Origin: Eledone cirrhosa
Taxonomy: Eukaryota
Length of the DNA stretch: 64,000 nucleotides
NCBI GenBank assembly: GCA_964016885.1
Contig: OZ024759.1
Coordinates: 29,078,001-29,142,000, forward strand
Direction: 5' to 3'
Shown: positions 2,207-59,274 of the stretch, piece after piece
Layout of the letters: each line of letters opens with the position of its first letter
How positions within the stretch are numbered: position 1 is the first letter of the stretch
Notes under the pieces: generated by a model
What the model was told of the DNA's origin: nothing
Seen by the model: the letters and a program-made list of their open reading frames with translations, nothing else
Databases searched by the model: none
Program-made: the position numbers and the translations under genes

Positions 2207-2400
2207 TTACAGGACATAAATGCTACCAGCTGCCCAAATGGTGTCACTGCAAAGACATGGTTTTCCCCTCAAAATGAAAAGCAGACTGTATGATGCATGT
2301 ATACGAACAACAATGTTGCACAGCAGCGAGGCCTGGGAACTGTGTGCTGAGGACCTGCGAAGATTGGAAAGAAATGAAGCCTCCATGTTTCGTTGGATGA
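2207..2400 (+). mobile_element. RTE-clade LINE reverse transcriptase C-terminal fragment
   Basis: Translates FPLKMKSRLYDACIRTTMLHSSEAW...EDLRRLERNEASMFRWM; homologous fragment on the minus strand at about 33250-33360. Confidence 0.75.
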
Positions 2401-2730
2401 CTTTGCCTTTCATCCTTACGGGGTCGATAAAATAAAGTACCAGTAATGCACTGGGTAATTGCTGGCCTTGTGCCTAAAGTAGAAACAAGTATGATTTGTA
2501 GGTGATTTAGCTGCTTCTTTTAATAGGTGAACAACCTAGTAGGTCTATGCTCCCTCCCACATTTGGCTCATTTCATAGATTGTAGTGGAATCTTAGAATC
2601 TGGTATCTGGCAGTTATTGTAGCTTGTTGCAGAATGATGGCAGGAGTATGTAGCTACCTAAGAACATAATTTGTTCAGTTTTCTATTAAATATCTTCTTA
2701 CTAAAGTTTGTGTGTGTATGAATATATGCA

Positions 2731-2771
<41 letters not shown>

Positions 2772-2824
2772 GCATATATTCATACACCACCACCACCCCA
2801 CCAACATCACCGCAACTGAACAAG

Positions 2825-2866
<42 letters not shown>

Positions 2867-2961
2867 CGATCTTGTTCAGTTGTGGTGGTGGTGGTGGTGG
2901 TGGTAGTAGTGGTGAGTGTGACCAAGTTACTAGAGGACAATGACCTGAAGAAATGTTATGG

Positions 2962-3065
<104 letters not shown>

Positions 3066-3556
3066 TAGTAACTTGGTCACACTCACCACTACCACCACCC
3101 CACCAACATCACCACAACTGAACAAGATCGATTTCTTCCCGAGAGAGAGAGAATTGATATCAGTATTTGACTTTATTTATCAGCCACAAAAGGGTGAAAG
3201 GCAAAGTTGACTTCAGTGGAATTTGAACACAGGGGGCGCTGAAGCAAATGATGTGAAGCATTCTATCTGCCATTCTAAACACCTCTGCCAACTCACTGCT
3301 TATATATATATACTGGGAAAGCATACAGATGTATAAGACTACATATTATGCACACATGCACATTATGTATACATACACATGCACACAAACATGCATAATA
3401 TCTATATGTACACATAACACATACACACATGCAGTTATATACACAAACATTTATGCACACAAACATTCATGCAAACATACCTGCACACACACACAGCTTC
3501 ATTTTATGGAATGTATTCCCTGGGGGGGATGGACTTACATATACATATATAAATAC

Positions 3557-3587
<31 letters not shown>

Positions 3588-3639
3588 TATGAAATACTGT
3601 TGGCCTCACGCTCACTATAATTTCTATACTTTCATTTAT

Positions 3640-3771
<132 letters not shown>

Positions 3772-4118
3772 TTTAGTTATGTAAACTTCAGATGACAAGA
3801 ATAATTAATCCCAATATAGAGTCTTACAAGGAATTTGGTAGAGATTATGTATGTGTGGGTATGTTTCTGTGTGTGTATGTTTGTTAATTAGTTTTGTGTG
3901 TAAATGTGTTTATTAATTGGTATTGTGGTGTGAGTGAGTGTGTGTGTGTGAGAGCATGTGCCAGATACAAATCTCTCCTTCATACATCATACAAAGCAGC
4001 TGTACAAGAAAGCTCATTAAAAAAAAAAAAAATTAAACTTCACAAATTTATATACATACATATACATATATGTGTGTGTGTGTAAACGCATACATACATG
4101 CACACATATGTGTGTGTG

Positions 4119-4156
<38 letters not shown>

Positions 4157-4373
4157 TCACACTCGTTCAGCGCATCGGTAGGGGTTCTCCTACATGGATA
4201 TAAAGTAGTGGCCGTACTCGAAAACGAGTTGGCAGCCACAATATATATATATATATACATACACATCTTTTTTTATTCTACATGGGTTTCAATAATGAAA
4301 AGCAATCCATAAGTAACGTTAAGTAATCATAACAACACATTGGGATTCCCAGCATCCTGTAAGTGCATATCTC

Positions 4374-5215
4374 ATCATCATCACCGTTTTATGTCCGTTC
4401 TTCCATGCTAGCATGGGTTAGACAGGTTGTCCTATTGTGGGCCGTGTCTGGTCGGCTGACCATGCCTTGCTCATACAGAAACTGATTTTGGCTTGATTTC
4501 TACAGCTGGATCCCCTTCCTAACACCAACCTCATTTACAGTGAGTGCTGGGTGCCTTTTTACCGTGGCGCCTACACGACCACTTTACAGTGTGGGCTGGG
4601 TGCTTTTTTGCCGTGGGAGGGTGTGGGGGCATATTGTCTATATGCTTCAGCTTGTACCCATGGGAGGTCGGGTACTCTGTATTACTGCGTGACGCCAGAG
4701 GTCACGGTCGTGTGTCATCGCCTTTGAGAGGTGTAATTGGGTAAGGTCGGCTTTTATCACCTCATCCCAGGTCTTCTTGGGTCTCCCCACTCCGCGGTTT
4801 CCATTGACTTCTAGTGCTCTATAAATCTTTGTATGTGTATATCTTCACCCATACCCACTTATTCCTGGGAGAGTGGCGGTGGTGGTGGTGGCAGTCTTCA
4901 ATTGATCCGAATGGATTCCCAAACGAGACCAGCCAAACTCATGGATGTTGTCCAACCATCTTGCTCAGGATCTACTCCTCAGTCTCATGCTGGTTGGTTT
5001 TAGTCATAAAATATCCCTAACAATTCTTTCTTGAGACATTCTAACCACATGTCCCTAATATCTGACCTGTGGTCACAATTTGGAGAAGTAGTGGTTCTAC
5101 CTGGAGTGACTCTATGATATCTTAGTTATGCACTCTAGTGAATAAGGTTACCCCCAAAAACTCAACCCTTCTGAAGAATCACATTCGGCCGCTTGTAATT
5201 GCCATCAAGGCCTGT
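4374..5215 (-). mobile_element. Cluster: SINE family B 3' part plus two RTE LINE 3' fragments
   Basis: 4374-4615 matches the SINE B tail. 4640-4812 minus strand translates EVNGNRGVGRPKKTWDEVIKADL...DRDLWRHAV. 4895-5215 is homologous to the RTE fragment at 6290-6860. Confidence 0.7.
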
Positions 5216-5290
5216 ACAGTGCATCTTATATGTATTTATATATAACGTTAAAAAATGAAAGAATAAAGAAAACAAAGTGAGGTAATAATT

Positions 5291-5478
5291 AATTGTTTCT
5301 ACTTTAGGCACAAGGCCAGCAATTACCCAGTGCATTACTGGTACTTTATTTTATCGACCCCGTAAGGATGAAAGGCAAAGTCAACCTCGGCGGGATTTGA
5401 ACTCAGATCGTAAAGGGACGTAACTATGCTGGAAAGCATGGCGTCCGACCCTCTACCGATACTGCCAATCCACCACCC
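5291..5478 (-). mobile_element. tRNA-derived SINE family A (Meta-domain-like core gcctttcatccttacggggtcgataaaataaagtaccag)
   Basis: About 190 bp, near-identical to copies at 5813, 21609, 26587, 34305, 45251, 60358. Confidence 0.85.
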
Positions 5479-17888: not shown

Positions 17889-18229
17889 GGAGGCACATGG
17901 CTTAGTGGTTAGAGCATTGGCCTTGCAATCGAAAGGTTGTGAGTTCAATTCTCAGACCGGGTGATGTGTTGTTTCCTTGAGCAAGACACTTATTTCACAT
18001 TGCTCCAGTTTACTCAGCTGTAGAAATGAGATGATAGGGACTGGGGTCCCTATCATTCCACTGCAAAGTGGTCGTGGAGGTGCCACGGCAAAAAAGTACC
18101 CAGCACTCACTGTAAATGAGGTTGGTGTTAGGAAAGGCATCCACCTGTAGAAACCAAGCCAGAATCAGTTCCCGTCCCACCCTTGCAAGAAGGGAAAAGC
18201 GGACGTAAGATGAAATGATGATGATGATG
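17889..18229 (+). mobile_element. SINE family B, full length (tRNA head, central domain, RTE-type 3' tail ending (GAT)n)
   Basis: A box tggcttagtgg and B box gagttcaattc, body ccttgagcaagacac..., tail ggaaaagcggacgtaagatgaaatgatgatg shared with RTE 3' ends in this window. Confidence 0.88.
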
Positions 18230-18319
18230 ACATATATTCACACACATAAACACATTTACAGTACAAATGCATGACTTTATTCTCAACAATTTATGTGTGG
18301 TTGTATATGTATTTGTATG

Positions 18320-18354
<35 letters not shown>

Positions 18355-18426
18355 AGGTGAGAGAATGTATATTTATATGCATGTATAAATGCTGGTGGGA
18401 ATACGCACACAAAAAGGTGAGGGTTC

Positions 18427-18458
<32 letters not shown>

Positions 18459-18894
18459 ACTCACACAGGTGAGAGGGTGTACATATATTATGTGTGTATA
18501 TATATATATATTACAGCTAAACCAACCTCTTTTCCTATTATTAGTCATCTAAATTCTTTCCCTTTCTTCTGGACTTCAGTGAAAGGTTTACAGCTTTTTT
18601 CTTTGTAACTTGTGTTTGTGTATGCGCATGTGTGGGTATATATGCGTGAGTCTGTCTATGTGTGTGGTGGACTGGTGGAATTGTTAGAGCATTGGAAATG
18701 CCCTACAGTATATTTTTCTGTTTCTTTGTGTTCAGAGTTCAAATCTAGGTGTGGCCTGCTAACCTCCAGTTTTAGGGTTATTTCCATTATTCTCTAGCCT
18801 CCACTAACCTTGGTACTCTGAAAAATTTATAAACAAGAATGCACACACACACATACATAAATATTAATAAATGGAAACTAGATTTATAAAACCC

Positions 18895-18970
18895 ATATTT
18901 ATTTTATTATACATATTTCAAGGGCCACCAAAGCAAGTTATGGTGCGCTTTCATCAGATAAAATACAATA
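18895..18970 (-). ncRNA. Type-I hammerhead ribozyme motif, intact core
   Basis: Minus strand: tattgtattttat-CTGATGA-aagcgcacca...tggtggccctt-GAAA-tatgt-ATA-ataaaataaata; about 12-bp stem I with one bulge. Confidence 0.7.
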
Positions 18971-19057
18971 CAGATTAGTTTTATAAATAAATATTGATGT
19001 ACCCTGAAAAAAGACAACCTTAACGGTTGGAGTTTCTTGGATAGTGATATATATATA

Positions 19058-19399
19058 TCATCATCATTCATCATCATTTCATTTTACGTCCGCTTTTCCC
19101 TGCTTTCAAGGGTGGGACGGGAACTGATTCTGGCTTGATTTCTACAGCTGGATGCCCTTCCTAACACCAACCTCATTTACAGTGAGTGCTGGGTGCTTTT
19201 TTGCCGTGACACCTCCACGACCACTTTGCAGTGGAATGATAGGGACCCCAGTCCCTATCATCTCATTTCTACAGCTGAGTAAACTGGAGCAATGTGAAAT
19301 AAAGTCTCTTGCTCAAGGAAACAACACATCACCCGGTCTGAGAATTGAACTCACAACCTTTCGATTGCAAGGCCAATGCTCTAACCACTAAGCCATGTG
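19058..19399 (-). mobile_element. SINE family B, full length
   Basis: Reverse complement of 17889-18229 with few differences. Confidence 0.88.
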
Positions 19400-20551: not shown

Positions 20552-20633
20552 ATGCTATGTTGGAGAAGCCAACTAGCTTTTGTACTCTTACCAATACTCC
20601 TGTTGGCCACTTCAAAATCTGAACAAGAAGGAG
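20552..20633 (+). CDS. FGFR: FGFR-family receptor, coding exon 1 (signal peptide MLCWRSQLAFVLLPILLLATSKSEQEG)
   Basis: ATG at 20552, hydrophobic signal-peptide core, strong donor GAG|GTAAGT at 20634. The phase-1 end matches the phase-1 start of the IgI exon at 41712. Possible acceptor ttgctgcag at 20472 for a 5'UTR part. Linkage across the 21-kb intron is inferred. Confidence 0.72.
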
Positions 20634-20787
20634 GTAAGTACACACATATACATATAAATAAATATATATATCATCATCATCATCATCATCATCGATTAAT
20701 GCCCATCTTATATATATATATCTATATACACTTCAATGAAAATATAAAAAGGCCAGATTCCAATACCTTTCTTTGATGTTGCTTAAT

Positions 20788-40060: not shown

Positions 40061-41711
40061 ATAGGGTGAGAAATAAAAGATCACATAGAAAGATACAGTG
40101 AAAGAATGGGGAAGAATTTTTGTATTATTCAACCACCCATTTGTGTGTATGTATATATATATGTATATATATAGTACATGAGCCTGCATTGCCCATTGGG
40201 CGGGTAGATGTTTTTGTTTATTTGACCCATATTTCTTTTCTTCTTTTTCTTCGCGCATATATTTGGGGGGAATTTACTAAAATATCTTTCTCATTATTAA
40301 GCTGGAGTTTGGAACATAACCTAGCAAAGGTTCCTACATAAAATCACGAAGGAAAGTTTTCAGATAAATATAACCTCTTTAAAATTAACTTGTTTTGTAC
40401 TGTAAAACGAGTTTGGTTTCAAAAGAGTTGAACCTTCACAAAAGTTATACTACATAAAACTTTGATGGAAGATTTCCAGATAAATATAAACACTTTAATA
40501 AAATATACCGTTTTGTACTGTAAAATGAGTGGTGCTTCAGTCGGTTTAGTATCAAAAGGGTTGAAACTTAATGACAGTTCTTACATAAAACTTTGAAGGA
40601 AGATTTTCAGATGAATTAAAATAAACAATTTTATATCATGGAACCTGTGAGAGTTTTGGAAGTTTCTGTAATGAAAGGGGTTAAGCTGATAGGGTGTGTG
40701 ATTTGAGGGAAATTTGGCTGTTGTTTTTATGGCAGGTCAAACAACTGTGTAAAGCATTCAGTCTCCAGTCTCTCTCTCTCATAGGCTGGCTCATTGGATG
40801 TTGACTTAATACTGTTGGTATAAACTATATTGAAGAGATCTGTGTTGATATATACCTCCACACACACACACACATGTGCATGTATATATATATAAACATA
40901 TATCTATCTGTATATATATATATATACACATATATATATTACAGTTACATATACATACAAGTTTCTCTGGTGGTTTAATGTACACACACAGACAGGCACA
41001 CCCCAGTTTTATGAGGATGTTTATTTTTGCTGCGTTTTAAATATTGTTTTGTTTTTGTTTTTAAATTGTAGTGCTAATTGAATTGGATTAATTTTTAATG
41101 TCCTATGTACAAATATAAACATGCGAAGGATATATATAACTATTTATATATATATATATATATACACACACATACATCCTGCCCCACTCTGTAAAGTAGT
41201 AGTGCAAGTGCCACGATAAAATATACCCCGCCTCACTCTGTAAAGTGGTACTGCAGGTGCCACAATAAAATGCACCCATGTCCACTCTGTAAAGCAACAA
41301 TAAAATATACCCACCTCCTCCAATCTGTAACGCTGGTGCCACGATAAAATGTACCCATGCCCACTCTGTAAAGTGCTTGTGCAGGTTCCATGATAAAATG
41401 CATCCCACCCCTCCATTCTCTAGTGGTAGTGCTGGTGCCACGATAAAATGCACCCAGTACCATTTCTGGCTGGTTTTGTTTCACAGAACGATAGCAATTT
41501 TGGCCTGGTTGGTATCTTCTTCTTCTTCTTCTTCTTCTTGATCATCACCCACTTATTCCTGAGAGGGTCATGAGGGCACTCCTCAAACACTCCTTCCGGC
41601 AGGTCCTGTCAAAAGCAACCATCTCCAATTGATCTGGCTGGTATCAAAACTTTTTAAAAAATTCATAATGTTCGATCGATTTCTTTAATACTTTATCTAA
41701 TCTCTTTTCAG

Positions 41712-42810: not shown

Positions 42811-42935
42811 GTTGAATATATTACGCTATGCTCTAGTCATTGAGGACAGTAGAAAGACCGACAGTGGTAACTATGCCTGTTACGCCCACAACCAGCACGG
42901 AAAGATCTGGGGCAATTTCACCTTGATTGTCAGAG
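42811..42935 (+). CDS. FGFR: FGFR-family exon 3, IgI C-half (RLNILRYALVIEDSRKTDSGNYACYAHNQHGKIWGNFTLIVR)
   Basis: gtttcag acceptor, GAG|GTAAGT donor, DSGxYxC motif; phase 2 to phase 1, in frame with exon 2. Confidence 0.93.
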
Positions 42936-43258
42936 GTAAGTTGAGATACCACCTTAACAAACTCCACCACCCTGTTTCCCCCACCACTAGCACCCACCCT
43001 CTCCACGAGGGTGGTTGGAAGGGGGTGTTGAAAGTTTTCTGTGTCTGTTTCTTCAATTATATATTGTGATGTTCTCTAAACAACCATACTTCTCTCTCTC
43101 ACTATGTGTGTGTATATGTGAATGTATGTGTCTGTATACTATGTGTGTGTATATGTGAATGTATGTGTCTGTATACTATGTGTGTGTATATGTGAATGTA
43201 TGTGTCTGTATACATATGTATATATATTTGAGTCTGTATGTATGTACATGTGTATGTG

Positions 43259-43296
<38 letters not shown>

Positions 43297-43780
43297 AATG
43301 TGTATCTGTATATATTTTAAAGATGCCATGTTTTTATAGTTCAGTTCCCCATCATTACAGCTCATGTTTTTTACTATTGTAAATGTTGTTGCTGTTATTG
43401 TTGTAGTTGATTGTGTATTTATATATATAGCCTTCTGCTTTTCTTCCCCTCTGACTCTCTCTGTACATACACATATGTATATTTATACAATAATCTCTCC
43501 TACATGTTTATATACATATCTACACTGTGTATAATGAGTGTGTGTATCCGGTTTAGAATAGATACACCACATCCCTGCGCGTCATAAGAAGCAACAAAAG
43601 GGGTTGGGGAATTATTGACTCAAAAAATCCTGTTCAACCCATGCCAACATGAAAAAGGGACGTAATGATATTGATATGTATGTATCTATGTATATATGTG
43701 AAAATTAAATGATTAAACAACACAGGGAAATGATAAAGTACAATGAAGAAATATATTTGTTTAACACTTGATATAGGAAG

Positions 43781-43823
43781 AAAAGAGTCTTAATGTTTCA
43801 GACATCAGTCCTTCATCAGAGAA
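43781..43823 (-). ncRNA. Minimal hammerhead motif, family A, intact core
   Basis: Minus strand: tct-CTGATGA-aggactgatgtct-GAAA-ca-TTA-aga. Confidence 0.6.
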
Positions 43824-44338
43824 ATACAAGAAGGTATAGAAAGAGTGAAGAGCAGGAGAATTGGGAATAAAATGTTATTCCCTTCAGTGTATGTCAAAAG
43901 ATACGACAACTTCTCTGCACTAATAGAACGTATGACCATACGTAAGCAAGATGCAGACCCCTCGAGGCCTGTCTGGGATATAATAGTTCAAGATAAACAA
44001 GACAAACACAGATATAATAACACACAGAGATATAATAACAGAGTTGTGTTAGTTTCATGCTTGTAGAAAAAGTAATGTTTCAACGTATTGGAAGTTAGTC
44101 CTCCATCAGAGAAGAGCAGAGTCTTCGGAAGGAAATTATATATGAGATATGTGTTTGGTAAATATTATTGTTATTTATGCTTAATAGATTCTGAAGAAGT
44201 CAATATAGCAGAAATATATTTTCGTTGTTTCCATGTTTCAAGAGAGTTGTACATCCAATTATTCAAAAATGTTATGAGACAATTCACATAATCTGTGTCT
44301 ATACATAGGCATTGATATATATATATATATATATATAT

Positions 44339-44567
44339 ATTAAGAGAGTAAAACAAAGAAGCCTTCAATACATCAAAAGTCTTTATTAGCCGACAATGTT
44401 TCGTCCTATTAAGGACTCATCAGGGCAATTAAAACAACAAGAAGTAATATCGGCAGATACAAGCCTTCTTGTTTTAATTGCCCTGATGAGTCCTTAATAG
44501 GACGAAACATTGTTGGCTAATAAAGACTTTTGATGTATTGAAGGCTTCTTTGTTTTACTCTCTTAAT
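44339..44567. mobile_element. Inverted repeat with about 99-bp arms, each carrying a canonical hammerhead ribozyme (Penelope-like pLTR or retrozyme relic)
   Basis: Arms 44339-44437 and 44469-44567 differ at one base. + strand: gcc-CTGATGA(44483)-GTCCT taat AGGAC-GAAA-catt-GTT-ggc. The - strand copy has a GTC triplet at 44394-44392. Abuts (TA)n. Confidence 0.85.
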
Positions 44568-44664
44568 TTTTCGGCTCTGTTTAACTACATTGAGCTATAC
44601 CTTTTACTGTCATTTCTATAATACGAAGAGGGTGTTTAACTCCAACACGCTCCAGTATTTTAAC

Positions 44665-44699
<35 letters not shown>

Positions 44700-44857
44700 T
44701 GTGCGTGTGTACCTCCAAATCATTGGAGGAATAAGAAAAATTAAAAAGCAGGATGGAGCATCTTAGAAGACCATTAGTATGGTGCAAAATATAAAAATCT
44801 GAAAAGACGTGGCAATTATATGCTATCATATATAACTCTGTACTTTCTTTTGAACCT

Positions 44858-44892
<35 letters not shown>

Positions 44893-44973
44893 ATAATAAT
44901 AAATTTGAAGACTAAAATCCAAAGAGGGCTCGATAAGGATAAATATATATCAAATATATAAGAACCGTAGAGA

Positions 44974-45051
<78 letters not shown>

Positions 45052-45079
45052 AATGGCATGCTGCGTTGTTGCGAATGTG

Positions 45080-45203
45080 ATACATATGAATTAAAAAATA
45101 GAGCTAGAAGCCAGGACTATCCATCATCAGTGATCTTCTGGCCAGAAGATCACTGATGATGGATAGTCCTGGCTTCTAGCTCTATTTTTTAATTCATATG
45201 TAT
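45080..45203. repeat. Perfect 124-bp palindrome with no spacer
   Basis: Centre ttctgg|ccagaa at 45141/45142; base-by-base complementarity over 62 bp. Confidence 0.92.
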
Positions 45204-45250
45204 ATATATCATCATCATCATTTTACGTCCGCTTTTCCCTGCTTGAAAGG

Positions 45251-45424
45251 AATTGTTTCTATTTTTGGCACAAGGCCAGCAATTACCAAGTACATTACTG
45301 GTACTTTATTTTATCGACCATGTAAGGATGAAAGGCAAAGTTAACCTCGGTGAGATTTGAACTCAGATTGTAAAGGGACGTAACTATGCTGGAAAGCATG
45401 TCCGACCCTCTACCGATACTGCCA
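45251..45424 (-). mobile_element. SINE family A
   Basis: Matches the family A consensus. Confidence 0.8.
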
Positions 45425-45613
45425 TATATAATGTATGTGTATGTGTGTGTGTATATATTGACGGAAGGGTTTTTAGGTACATCCATACAAGAATAAATGA
45501 GACATTAACTGAATGTGCATTCAATACACATTAGCAAAGTATAGGTTTTATTTGAGATAGAATAATAGATAGATGGACTTATTTTAATTTTCCAAAATTT
45601 TTGTTGTTTTCAG

Positions 45614-45667
45614 ATAAAGAAAACATGACAACAAGTATGTCAGACGCAGAATATATAAAGAAGAGAG
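45614..45667 (+). CDS. FGFR: FGFR-family exon 4, 54-nt IgI-IgII linker (DKENMTTSMSDAEYIKKR)
   Basis: ttttgttgttttcag acceptor, GAG|GTAACC donor, open frame, symmetric phase 1-1, at the position of the vertebrate acid-box exon. Confidence 0.7.
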
Positions 45668-46355
45668 GTAACCTTTCAATTTTAATTGTTGTTCTTGTTG
45701 TTACTGATGTTTTTACTGTTGTTGTTGTTGTTGTTGCTCTTGTTAATTATTGTTGTTGTCTTTACACTGCTTGAGCTCGTAAAATCTAGTGTATATATGT
45801 GTGTAAATATATGTGTGTATGTATATATATGTATATAAGATGGCAAAATTCCTTGATTCAGCATCTTGGTAATGGTCTGAAACGAAGGAGAGAAGTGGTG
45901 GAGGGGAAAGAGATGTCTGTAATGTATATGTAGTGTGTGTTGTTGTATATATAGTGTGTGTGTGTGTGTAGGCAATGAGATAATTGTAGCTTCAGCTGTT
46001 AAGGAATTCTTTCCTGTTTTCCTTTTGTTAAATTCTCTCTCTCTCTTTCTTTCTTTCATTCTATCCTATCTCTCTTCTCTCTACCCTATCCCTCTCTCTC
46101 TCTATCTATATCCCCCTTTCTCTCTCTATCCTATCTCTTTCCCTGCCCACCTTATCTTCTCTCTGTCTCTCCCTCATCTTCACTATTTTATAGCTATAAC
46201 TTATGTCAATAGAATTAAAGATATACTTTACCAACATCTGTTGGTTGTTGTTATTGTTATATTGATACACATATACATATATATACACACACATACATTT
46301 ATATTTATGTATATATATACGCATATATATATACATACACACACATACATTTATA

Positions 46356-46407
<52 letters not shown>

Positions 46408-46424
46408 TATATACAGACATTAAG

Positions 46425-47830
46425 GAAGAGTTTTAAGATAAACTGTTTTTAGCAACAGTTGGATCTGTTGTGATATATGGCTGCAAGGTATGGGTACACT
46501 GAAGCTGGAATAACAGTTTGGGGGTGCAGTGTACTGATTCCTATGTATTACAGATGGATGAACCACACCACATCACACCACTAATACTGAACTTTATGAC
46601 GATCTGTCAAAGTTAACCAGAAAGACAGCTCAGTGAAGATTACAACTGGCAAGTCACTCAATATGTAAAGACATCCCAAGGATTACCTAAGAGAGATTGC
46701 TACTGACAGGTTCCTATAGTCTCAGATCTGGTGCTATGGTAGCCAATGTATGGACAGATTAACTGGGGCAGATTGCTACTGACAGGTTCCTGTGTGCAAG
46801 ACATCCTGAAGAAATAGTCTCAGATCTGGTGCTATGGTAGCCAATGTATGGACAGATTAACTGGGAGAGATTGCTACTGACAGGTTCCTGTGTGCAAGAC
46901 ATCCTGAAGAAATAGTCTCAGATCTGGTGCTATGGTAACCAATGTATGGACAGATTAACTGGGGCAGATTGCTACTGACAGGTTCCTGTGTAAGACATCC
47001 TGAAGAAATAGTCTCAGATCTGGTGCTATGGTAGCCAATGTATGGACAGATTAACTGGGAGAGATTGCTACTGACAGGTTCCTGTGTAAGACATCCTGAA
47101 GAAATAGTCTCAGATCTGGTGCTATGGTAACCAATGTATGGACAGATTAACTGGGAGAGATTGCTACTGACAGGTTCCTGTGTAAGACATCCTGAAGAAA
47201 TAGTCTCAGATCTGGTGCTATGGTAGCCAATGTATGGACAGATTAACTGGGAGAGATTGCTACTGACAGGTTCCTGTGTAAGACATCCTGAAGAAATAGT
47301 CTCAGATCTGGTGCTATGGTAGCCAATGTATGGACAGATTAACTGGGAGAGATTGCTACTGACAGGTTCCTGTGTAAGACATCCTGAAGAAATAGTTTCA
47401 GATCTGGTGCTATGGTAGCCAATGTATGGACAGATTAACTGGGAGAGATTGCTACTGACAGGTTCCTGTGTAAGACATCCTGAAGAAATAGTTTCAGATC
47501 TGGTGCTATGGTAGCCAATGTATGGACAGATTAACTGGGAGAGATTGCTACTGACAGGTTCCTGTGTAAGACATCCTGAAGAAATAGTCTCAGATCTGGT
47601 GCTATGGTAGCCAATGTATGGACAGATTAACTGGGGCAGATTGCTACTGACAGGTTCCTGTGTGCAAGACATCCTGAAGAAATAGCCTGAAAGCTGGTGG
47701 TGCTATGGCAGCCAAAACTTAGACTTCAAAACAACGACCAGATTGAAGATGTATTGGAAATAAGAAGAGGGACAGTGAAGTGAGACATCTGGCATAAATA
47801 TGTTTCCTTGGTTTCATGAGAAGATCAGCT
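46425..47830 (+). mobile_element. Decayed LINE RT C-terminal fragment with an internal 96-bp tandem array (46692-47686, about 10 units)
   Basis: The unit reads RLLLTGSCVRHPEEIVSDLVLW*PMYGQ on +, resembling the RT C-terminal RRL.LAGHC.RHPEE....LVLW.P motif; identical phase at 47041 and 47521 (5 x 96). Confidence 0.75.
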
Positions 47831-48062
47831 GACATGAAATGAGATACACACACACATCATTTCTGCTATCCTTAGCAGTGAATCATGAACGGAATTACAC
47901 CCTCACACCCCTTTATATATCATCATCATCATCATCGTTTAACTACTATTATGCTTTTTGAAGCAATGTTTTACAGCTAGATGCCTTTTCTGACTCCAAC
48001 TCTTTTAATCACATTTAGCAACATACATGGATATATAGTACGGCTATTCCAAAAACCCAGTG

Positions 48063-48095
<33 letters not shown>

Positions 48096-48275
48096 GGTAC
48101 TTGTATGTATATATATATATATATATAGGTGTGTGTGAGTACATAGGCATACATGCATGTGTACGTATGTGTATCCCATCCCAAAGTGATTGATATCACA
48201 ACCATTTCAAGCAAGAGGTGTACATAAGTAGGTACATGTGGTGTGTGTGTGTGTGTATGTATATATGTACATGTT

Positions 48276-48314
<39 letters not shown>

Positions 48315-48530
48315 ATATATGTAGGTACATGTTTGTGTAAGTGTGTCAGTGTATTTGTGTGTACGCATAGGTATGTTTCAGTATGAGTGTGTGGAATGAC
48401 CCTCTTTTTCTTCCAAAAGATTCAGCCCAGATGTTCTTAACATCCGACTTCCTGTTTACCCCCAGACACATCTAGATTTCTTTCTCTCTCTCTCCCTCTT
48501 CTCAGTATCTTAATATGGCCACCACAACTC

Positions 48531-48578
<48 letters not shown>

Positions 48579-48676
48579 GTGTATGTCTTGCTTGCTTTCT
48601 TGCTTACTTCTACACACTTCCTGTATAAACATTTCACCCCCACCCCTCTACTTCCTTATATATATATATATGTGTG

Positions 48677-48708
<32 letters not shown>

Positions 48709-48873
48709 TACTCTCTCTCAGCCATCTCAAGCAAACCATTCAGTATAAATATTTTCTGAATGGCCGGTAATAGTGTGTCCTGCTTCCCTTCAGCTCATAA
48801 TGGTGCTTCCAAATACATCCTTTATATATATGTGTATGTATGTATGTGTGTATGTGTGTGTGTGTTATTATAT

Positions 48874-49361
48874 ATACTAGCAGAAAAACCATCGTACGTG
48901 TGGTTTTCTGCTAGCATGTGTAGTGAGTATATTGATATTATACCCAAATATATATGCATGTAGATATGATACATCAAATAAAATCGTAATTGTCAATCAC
49001 ACAGAAATTGAACAAAGCCTATGTTACACTGTCTTCTGTAATCAGTAATGCATGATATATTTAAAAAAAGACGGCATTATATATAAACTGCATTAGGAGA
49101 AAATTAGCGACAGAAATATATGCGATTATAAGTGTTGTAATATAACAGTCGCTAACCGGAAGTGTTGACATTTGATGATTTTAAAGAAGTGAATTTTAAA
49201 GATTAAGCTATAAAATATATTTAATCAACAGCCACAAAATTTAGCACATAATTTATGTAATATTCCTTCATTATTTATTCAAAGTAACTTATTTTACAAA
49301 CGGGGTAAAAAAATATATTCTGGATGCAATCCCGCAGACCTTCCTTTATTATAGTTAAGAT
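48874..49361. mobile_element. Possible Helentron/HINE-like non-autonomous element
   Basis: Starts atactagcagaaaaacc...ggttttctgctag (subterminal hairpin) and ends ctttattatagttaagat. Confidence 0.4.
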
Positions 49362-49721
49362 TATTTTGTAGGCAGTGGATAAATACCAGAGTTGATACAA
49401 CCAACTTTCCCCTACTCCAAATTGCTGGCCTTGTGCCATTAGAAATTATTATTATTATTGTTGTTTGGCCCTCATCAGCTTAAGGAGGACAACTGGGAGC
49501 AGGCACTTGCCCCAACAGTCAGAATGACTGTGACTTTTTATGGGCTTTTTTCCACAAGTGAAGCTTGGAGATCTTCCCTTTCCACCTATTGGGACTTTCA
49601 TTTTGTCTAATTTTTTAATAACATTTTTACACCCCAAAACCTCACATTGTATCGTCTTGGTTTTTCTTAATGTGATCCCTGTTTGGCTAATAAAGAAACC
49701 CTTATTATTATTTCTATGTAG

Positions 49722-49879
49722 GTCCACCTCGATGGGCATCCAAAAAAATACCTACGAGACTTGTGGCACGGCCTCCAAGTTCCTGGGTCCAGTTGAAATG
49801 CCCTGCCATCGGTAACCCTAAACCCAACATAACCTGGTATAAATCAGGGAAACTCTTCAAAGAGGGCCAAATGAAACAG
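49722..49879 (+). CDS. FGFR: FGFR-family exon 5, IgII N-half (GPPRWASKKIPTRLVARPPSSWVQLKCPAIGNPKPNITWYKSGKLFKEGQMKQ)
   Basis: tttctatgtag acceptor, CAG|GTAAGA donor; matches the FGFR D2 pattern P.W......L.A.P....V...CPA.GNP.P...W.K.GK.F; phase 1 to 0. Confidence 0.94.
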
Positions 49880-58119: not shown

Positions 58120-58566
58120 ATCATCATCATCATCATCATCATCACTGTTTTACGTCCATTCTTCCACGCTAGCATGGGTTAGACGGGTTGTCCTGTTGTG
58201 GGCAGTGTCTGGTCTGCTGACCTTGTCTTGCTCATACAGTAACTGATTCTGGCTTGATTTCTACAGCTGGATGCCCTTCCTAACACCAACCTCATTTACA
58301 GTGAGTGCTGGGTGCTTTTTTGCCGTGGCGCCTACATGTCTACTTTACAGTGTGGGCTGGGTGCTTTTTTGCTGTGGCACTTCCACGACCACTTTGCAGT
58401 GGCATGATAGGGACCCAAGTCCCTATCATCTCATTTCTACAGCTGAGTAAACTGGAGCAATGTGAAATAAAGTGTCTTGCTCAAGGAAACAACACATCAC
58501 CCGGTCTGAGAATTGAACTCCCAACCTTTCGATTGCAAGCCCAATGCTCTAACCACTAAGCTATGT
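58120..58566 (-). mobile_element. SINE family B variant (extra internal repeat unit, alternative tail)
   Basis: Head at 58566 reading leftwards; duplicated tttacagtg..gctgggtgcttttttgc unit. Confidence 0.87.
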
Positions 58567-58683
58567 ATATATATCCGTGTGTAGTTAATGGACAAAAGAA
58601 AAGAGAACTCAATACCGAAGTAATAGTACAAGTATGCTGGGTGAAACTGCAGAAACTCACTACTTAGTCATAATAAATGAATA

Positions 58684-58718
<35 letters not shown>

Positions 58719-58930
58719 TTCTACATACATATATACACACAAGTACATACATATATAGTGTACGGTAATTTGGTTATGAATATCCACAGTTGGGAAAGCA
58801 ATGCGTCCATGACACATTTTGTGGTATACGAAGAACCCAACCATTATACAGCAGTGTCGAAATAGGTTTAGGATCTATCTAATGACAAACCAGTAGAAAA
58901 AAAAAAGGAATATAGTTTATATATATATAT

Positions 58931-59274
58931 GGAGGCACATGGCTTAGTGGTTAGAGCATTGGCCTTGCAATCGAAAGGTTGTGAGTTCAATTCTCAGACC
59001 GGGTGATGTGTTGTTTCCTTGAGCAAGACACTTTATTTCACATTGCTCCAGTTTACTCAGCTGTAGAAATGAGATGATAGGGACTGGGGTCCATATCATT
59101 CCACTGCAAAGTGGTCGTGGAGGTGCCACGGCAAAAAAGCACCCAGCACTCACTGTAAATGAGGTTGGTGTTAGGAAGGGCATCCAGCTGTAGAAACCAA
59201 GCCAAAATCAGTTCCCGTCCCACCCTTGCAAGCAGGGAAAAAGCGGACGTAAAATGAAATGATGATGATGATGA
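58931..59274 (+). mobile_element. SINE family B, full length
   Basis: Near-identical to 17889-18229. Confidence 0.9.

Follow-up and report, generated by a model that had tools for sequence, protein, structure and literature searches.

A truncated, head-to-head Penelope-like insertion carrying twin hammerhead motifs, predicted to be inactive, in an FGFR intron of Eledone cirrhosa

The window analysed here is a stretch of 64,000 nucleotides from Eledone cirrhosa (contig OZ024759.1, positions 29,078,001 to 29,142,000), the plus strand of which carries exons of an FGFR gene. The insertion with which we are concerned lies within an intron of this gene, 42935-49721, whose splice phases are compatible. 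The four exons that flank the insertion site match Ig families, the best PDB matches of the next exon (IgIII) are the ectodomains of FGFR1/3/4/2, and a kinase exon further downstream, found in L046 about 31 kb past the exons upstream of 64000, has FGFR2 as its best match. An earlier note, made from the letters alone, had placed the feature in FGFR intron 3; it is indeed an intron of FGFR on the plus strand, while the number 3 holds only if a candidate signal-peptide exon, placed by inference, is coding exon 1. The exons concerned are:

20555-20635, + strand of the gene: candidate signal-peptide exon, possible coding exon 1, inferred from splice phases that fit
42811..42934, + strand: FGFR exon that precedes the host intron and encodes the second half of Ig domain I
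49722..49878, + strand: FGFR exon that follows the host intron and encodes the first half of Ig domain II, with a splice phase that fits direct joining

Shortly before the first Ig exon there is a degenerate array of ∼49-nt units (41150-41456).

The insert is 328 nt long (44339-44666), with (TA)n runs on both sides, and the sequence beyond its left flank differs from that beyond its right. Each arm of the hairpin at its core is a piece of the terminal repeat (pLTR) of a Penelope-like retrotransposon (PLE), the hammerhead being part of that repeat. The arms, 44339-44437 and 44469-44567, are 99 bp each and their sole mismatch, 44392 vs 44514, falls at hammerhead position 17, so that the earlier description of a 99-bp inverted repeat with a single difference at the cleavage-site base proves exact. 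The bounds given in that description hold for the arms (44339..44567) but not for the end of the insert, since the tail at 44568..44666 had been overlooked. The arms are unequal in that only one bears this tail, and pLTR sequence that is not duplicated lies between them. The features of the insert, in order, are:

44315..44338, no strand: (TA)n target microsatellite, left, from the sequence
44339..44465, - strand: inverted 5'-truncated pLTR copy, 127 nt, stopping at the 'short end' of the family (44339), from an identity search
44389..44426, - strand: type I hammerhead motif with GUC triplet, C17 = 44392, antisense to the FGFR transcript
44438..44468, no strand: 31-nt loop, of which 44438-44465 is a plain continuation of the left pLTR copy
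44466..44666, + strand: direct 5'-truncated pLTR copy reaching the 'long end' of the family, 98-98.5% identical to L043 and L044
44480..44517, + strand: type I hammerhead motif with GUU triplet, U17 = 44514, on the FGFR sense strand
44568..44666, + strand: one-sided tail of ∼100 nt, between the short and long ends
44667..44694, no strand: (TA)n target microsatellite, right, from the sequence

The predicted fold of the hairpin has an energy of -172.8 kcal/mol (z = -30.7, with 0 of 200 shuffles equally stable), and on the plus transcript the 99-bp duplex pairs throughout, the mismatch becoming a G-U pair. At the inversion junction, ∼44465-44468, there is either 1-nt microhomology with a 3-nt deletion or a gain of three bases. 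The left 127 nt (44339-44465) recur with 100% identity at at least 39 other places in the genome (39 of 42 rows, with 40 of 1,661 candidates scored). The proposal of a young inverted-pLTR insertion is supported by the pLTR origin of the arms, their high identity to other copies and their family-typical ends, youth being the likely reading of the identity.

The neighborhood contains further repeats. Some 500 nt away in the same intron a perfect loopless palindrome with 62-bp arms (45080-45203) lies by (TA)n runs; its repeat is of high copy number (1,176 candidates, 40 scored), occurs as close inverted pairs elsewhere and has no match to the hammerhead pattern inside. A tandem array of about ten units of 96-98 nt occupies 46681-47700 of this intron, and other inverted pairs of dispersed repeats, with perfect stretches of 70-100 bp, are found at 2398-5383, 17894-19399 and 58258-59196, making long duplexes common in the FGFR region.

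Both arms carry the motif that had been read as gcc-CUGAUGA-GUCCU-uaau-AGGAC-GAAA-cauu-GU(C/U)-ggc, with GUC on the minus and GUU on the plus strand; the core, CUGANGA...GAAA, and an NUH cleavage triplet are therefore present in each. In the plus-strand motif the proximal part of stem I has 3 bp, stem II has 5 bp and a 4-nt loop, and stem III has 2 bp and a 3-nt loop, the last lying within a near-palindromic 7-nt segment such as can pair one molecule with another. Stems I, II and III are able to form around the core, with a predicted pair probability for stem III of at most 0.002. Of the term 'canonical', used previously for these hammerheads, the type I layout stands, but the motif is of the metazoan dimer type with its 2-bp stem III. 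Distal stem I varies without compensation in 29 aligned rows, 26 of which were chosen for an exact core. An Rfam scan of the whole 64,000-nt window gave nothing at the gathering score; at the E-value level the minus arm matches RF00163 (type I) with 31.7 bits (E 1.1e-5, cut-off 34) and the plus arm RF00008 with 36.8 bits (cut-off 48.5). Matches to miRNA families at the same level were set aside because any long hairpin yields them.

The parent of the arms is a unit of 4,742 nt with the order pLTR-ORF-pLTR (L043, L044), whose ORF of ∼895 aa combines a reverse transcriptase with GIY-YIG, the YRDD and YIG motifs both being present. The frame is open for at least 890 aa without a stop in 28 of 95 scored protein matches, and 244 of 8,000 scored sequences are homologues at E <= 1e-20, among which PF00078 (P0096) and PF01541 (P0069) are found. 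In five copies or pieces of the ORF itself Pfam placed GIY-YIG below the cut-off in two and not at all in three, and detected no reverse transcriptase domain, nor was one found by PDB search with two full ORFs. The motifs of the Hydra clade are all present by alignment, including RWR/RWK (RWR in L044, either form in homologues), DKT instead of DKG, a CxCx5C linker, and CxxC and CxH, which surround the conserved E and N; there is no CCHH. The hammerhead lies in the pLTR in the sense of the ORF, ∼260 nt upstream of the first in-frame ATG. Judging by these motifs, which place the clade, the parent element is best taken as a young, high-copy family of Hydra-clade PLEs, with a unit that exceeds the clade's tendency toward lengths <3 kb.

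The same ORF shows, at L044:4944-7628 (-), two low-complexity N/S-rich stretches that are missing from homologues of ∼700 aa; they lie after the reverse transcriptase region and before the nuclease linker. At the tandem junctions of L032:6225-8501 and L043:725-3613 the frame is open from within the pLTR tail, 67 codons ahead of the first ATG, on into the ORF.

At related loci the family sequence either adjoins (TA)n at the same base as 44339, the short end, or runs ∼100 nt further, the long end. Among 64 copies of the hammerhead, from loci partly chosen by identity to the window, (TA)n ends at one of these two fixed offsets in 55 (26 short, 29 long), with 7 at other offsets and 2 with none. 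Two other classes of element were considered and rejected, a non-LTR retrozyme since the two copies are head to head and are not head-to-tail tandem units, and a MITE or fold-back DNA transposon since the ends are unequal by ∼100 nt and the parent encodes a reverse transcriptase.

A count of genomic copies had been proposed in the earlier note and was run: the genome contains 2,307 exact copies of the 35-nt ribozyme core (1,249 GUU and 1,058 GUC), with 0 occurrences of reversed-pattern controls. In order to examine the layout we used the first 205 Mb of C1, where the GUU and GUC lists are both complete (154 copies), and considered pairs within 8 kb. As many as 52 of these copies form 26 head-to-head pairs, with position 17 concordant in 24 and discordant in 2. 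One arm has a short end and the other a long end in 25 of the 26; the remaining pair combines a short end with an arm that has no (TA)n within 300 nt. The mean number of changes that set two arms apart is 1.6 when both belong to one pair vs 6.8 when they come from different pairs, and for 32 of the 52 arms the nearest or tied-nearest arm is its own partner. Twin cores separated by a gap of 40-70 nt were found at ten loci, the window locus included, and every junction is different. Different junctions together with short/long pairs at many loci argue for independent insertions and against assembly fold-back, and because the short-plus-long rule is so nearly general in inverted pairs the hairpin layout is the family's routine insertion product.

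The single base by which the arms differ had been given some weight, which the data do not support. U17 is common both in the family, with the copies counted above, and in the clade, where the cleavage site is U in 10 of 25 families, A in 11 and C in 4 in the Hydra-clade hammerhead table of Craig 2021 (PMC8557442). Across the genome GUU is a propagating lineage and not a product of decay; CpG decay as its source was rejected, as the mirror CpG change is found in only 10 copies vs the 1,249 with GUU, and GUA or GUG in 4. GUU copies are mostly on haplotypes other than that of the window arm (10 of 12 loci). Since GUU on the exact 64-nt haplotype of this arm has just two genomic occurrences, here and at one more place, the U at 44514 is likely a private CpG transition. 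In all three discordant pairs (window, L082 and L084) the U is on the long-end arm, three pairs being too few to interpret. Separate RNA templates for the two arms are not supported, as the discordant pair L084 shares every other variant and differs at position 17 only.

Whether the plus-strand motif would cleave was addressed by folding with ViennaRNA, which ignores tertiary contacts and proteins. For the isolated arm the predicted probability of the active secondary structure is ∼1e-4. In the full hairpin a forced active fold is predicted at -110.0 kcal/mol vs -179.6 kcal/mol, a cost of ∼70 kcal/mol, with a stem II pair probability of 3e-15. With the arms in head-to-head order, transcription of either strand reaches the antisense arm before the sense arm, and stepwise folding predicts that the duplex has already formed as the core emerges. 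These calculations bear out the suggestion that an antisense-first hairpin should out-compete the ribozyme fold. Cleavage by the sense ribozyme is predicted to depend on a dimer partner, and none is available in cis because each FGFR transcript has one sense ribozyme. Among experiments on related motifs, Cervera and de la Pena 2014 (PMC4209133) report that one minimal PLE motif by itself did not cleave and that dimers had low activity only, and according to Frangieh 2024 (PMC11167929) an anole PLE hammerhead cleaves only with its protein added, is dispensable for insertion in vitro, and lacks RNA-seq ends that match it. Palindromic repeats are reported to be hyper-edited in other animals and hyper-editing in octopus to be very high; by analogy, editing of the hairpin duplex by ADAR is plausible, as is its use as a Dicer substrate. 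Core adenosines are essential in the established chemistry of the hammerhead, and ADAR editing would be expected to hit these as well.

We conclude, with a probability of roughly 90%, that the 328 nt at this locus are a heavily 5'-truncated, head-to-head insert left by a young Hydra-clade PLE in (TA)n repeats within the FGFR intron, that this insert is likely a neutral passenger, and that its ribozyme is predicted to be inactive. The pLTR origin, the two fixed ends, the (TA)n target and the common source of the arms are all seen directly in the copies. For the steps that produced the insertion we draw on Frangieh 2024 (PMC11167929), where the tail is bounded by two start sites for reverse transcription, and cutting and extension occur on both strands of the target. 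On this model the GIY-YIG nuclease would make a nick in each strand of the (TA)n target, and one cDNA would be primed on each of these opposite strands, from two fixed sites in the RNA that lie ∼100 nt apart. Both cDNAs would halt just upstream of the hammerhead and then be joined head to head; one of the GUC triplets likely became GUU through a later C-to-T change at a CpG. When FGFR is transcribed the antisense arm would come first, the duplex is predicted to zip as the sense arm emerges, and the intron would be spliced out of the pre-mRNA with no cleavage; the duplex is likely edited by ADAR in the same way as other long duplexes in introns. Head-to-head repeats have also been proposed to arise by self-priming on an antisense template (Arkhipova 2013, PMC3846280), and the present data do not separate this route from priming at two sites.

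An intact catalytic core on the FGFR sense strand, with a GUU that satisfies the NUH rule, invites the view, put forward in the earlier note, that the hairpin is a conditional switch which ADAR editing, a helicase or a protein of the element opens to let the hammerhead cut FGFR pre-mRNA. The protein-assisted anole hammerhead (PMC11167929) and the very high level of editing reported in octopus might be taken in its favor, and yet we regard it as very improbable. The ribozyme is predicted to be buried by the ∼70 kcal/mol noted above, with stem II practically never paired, and no opening trigger was found. An arm set free is predicted to misfold still, the motif is of the dimer type, for which the monomer was inactive in the account of Cervera 2014 (PMC4209133), and editing would be expected to strike essential core adenosines along with the duplex. 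Moreover the layout is routine, recurring at many loci, and nothing shows conservation of the copy in the window. Effects that need no catalysis, in which the duplex or an AAUAAA alters FGFR splicing, 3' processing or small-RNA output as a mildly deleterious or regulatory by-product, are also improbable, if less far-fetched. The duplex is wholly paired on the plus transcript, an AAUAAA is found at 44519, 5 nt past the cleavage site, and palindromic repeats elsewhere are reported to be edited heavily; however, the nearest exons lie 1.4 kb upstream and 5 kb downstream of the hairpin, the AAUAAA sits inside the duplex, and a second perfect palindrome in the same intron indicates that such structures are common here.

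Scarcely credible is an artefact of assembly in which reads folded back, a prospect that the earlier note had itself raised. Among 32 contig pieces from four sequencing runs over 43700-44960 none bridged the inversion junction or showed an empty site, as expected where repeat copies swamp the arms and break contigs, so that the region could in principle harbor such an error. Against this, the arms are unequal, with a tail on one, one base different and unduplicated pLTR sequence between them, the two outer flanks are unlike each other, and the rule of one short and one long end in 25 of 26 other pairs is not what a read fold-back would produce.

Much of what is seen here has precedents. An inverted copy with a one-sided tail, a hammerhead in the pLTR, pairs on opposite strands and an octopus family of the Hydra clade are all already published, as far as the descriptions cited below extend. 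Complex insertions of endonuclease-bearing PLEs (Arkhipova 2013, PMC3846280; Craig 2021, PMC8557442) are described as likewise having a head-to-head inverted 5'-truncated pLTR copy, a tail at one end, a microsatellite target and, in longer copies, tandem junctions. The described tail is 30-40 bp vs ∼100 nt in the present family, and the copy in the window, unlike those insertions, is cut down to pLTR ends alone. Type I hammerheads in pLTRs, with a weak palindromic helix III and thousands of copies, are reported in PMC4209133, which includes dual motifs on opposite strands 100-700 bp apart; here the core-to-core gap is only 59 nt and the copy lies within a named host gene.

Within the Hydra clade, as presented in PMC8557442, a C-terminal GIY-YIG, an RWK-type motif, DKT, the CxCx5C linker, the absence of CCHH and a (TA)n target are features shared with the present family, as are a hammerhead stem III that is a near-palindrome around a one-base centre and A, U or C at position 17. 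The clade includes Penelope-13_HM, in which a copy is inverted and both strands carry hammerheads, and Hydra-1_Obim of Octopus bimaculoides, whose hammerhead and protein sequence differ by eye from those found here. Differences from the clade as described are the unit of 4.7 kb with an ORF of ∼895 aa, vs families of <3 kb, and the presence of pLTR tandems. The family appears to be undescribed, being set apart from Hydra-1_Obim by eye; we found no paper describing it in searches of the literature, and supplements of bioRxiv 10.64898/2026.07.22.740005 may list relatives. The Anolis Poseidon element PAc (PMC11167929) likewise has an AT-rich target and two fixed 3' ends that bound a tail, and the reported dispensability of its hammerhead for insertion in vitro fits the spread of both GUC and GUU lineages in the present family; however, PAc belongs to a different clade and its hammerhead overlaps the start of the ORF, whereas here it lies well upstream. 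Conserved intronic ribozymes of amniotes and mammals (PMC6765202) are also self-cleaving motifs inside introns of host genes. Unlike those, the motif in the window derives from a repeat that is young and of high copy number, is kept buried by its own antisense copy and shows no sign of conservation.

The locus is typical retroelement scrap and cautions against reading twin hammerheads in introns as switches; a switch, were it real, would be the first ribozyme gate on the pre-mRNA of a receptor kinase, for which we found no support. Some value lies in the family: it is young and of high copy number, many of its ORFs are open, its tail is unusually long and its cleavage triplet exists in two lineages, and it is suited to tests of how PLEs make inverted copies and of whether the hammerhead matters in vivo. 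A more speculative and rather doubtful idea is that head-to-head insertion silences the element's own hammerhead, the antisense arm acting as a muzzle whichever strand is transcribed, and in this way helps copies to persist in host introns; were this so, solo copies should be depleted on the sense strand of introns and inverted pairs should not. Under this bolder reading the short/long rule and the 100-nt tail would also be direct evidence in the genome that each target strand is primed from the same source at an RNA site of its own. At L069:1577-1900 three copies of the hammerhead lie head to tail with spacings of 139 and 138 nt and adjoin an inverted copy, an array that looks like a nascent non-LTR retrozyme made from the pLTR of this PLE family.
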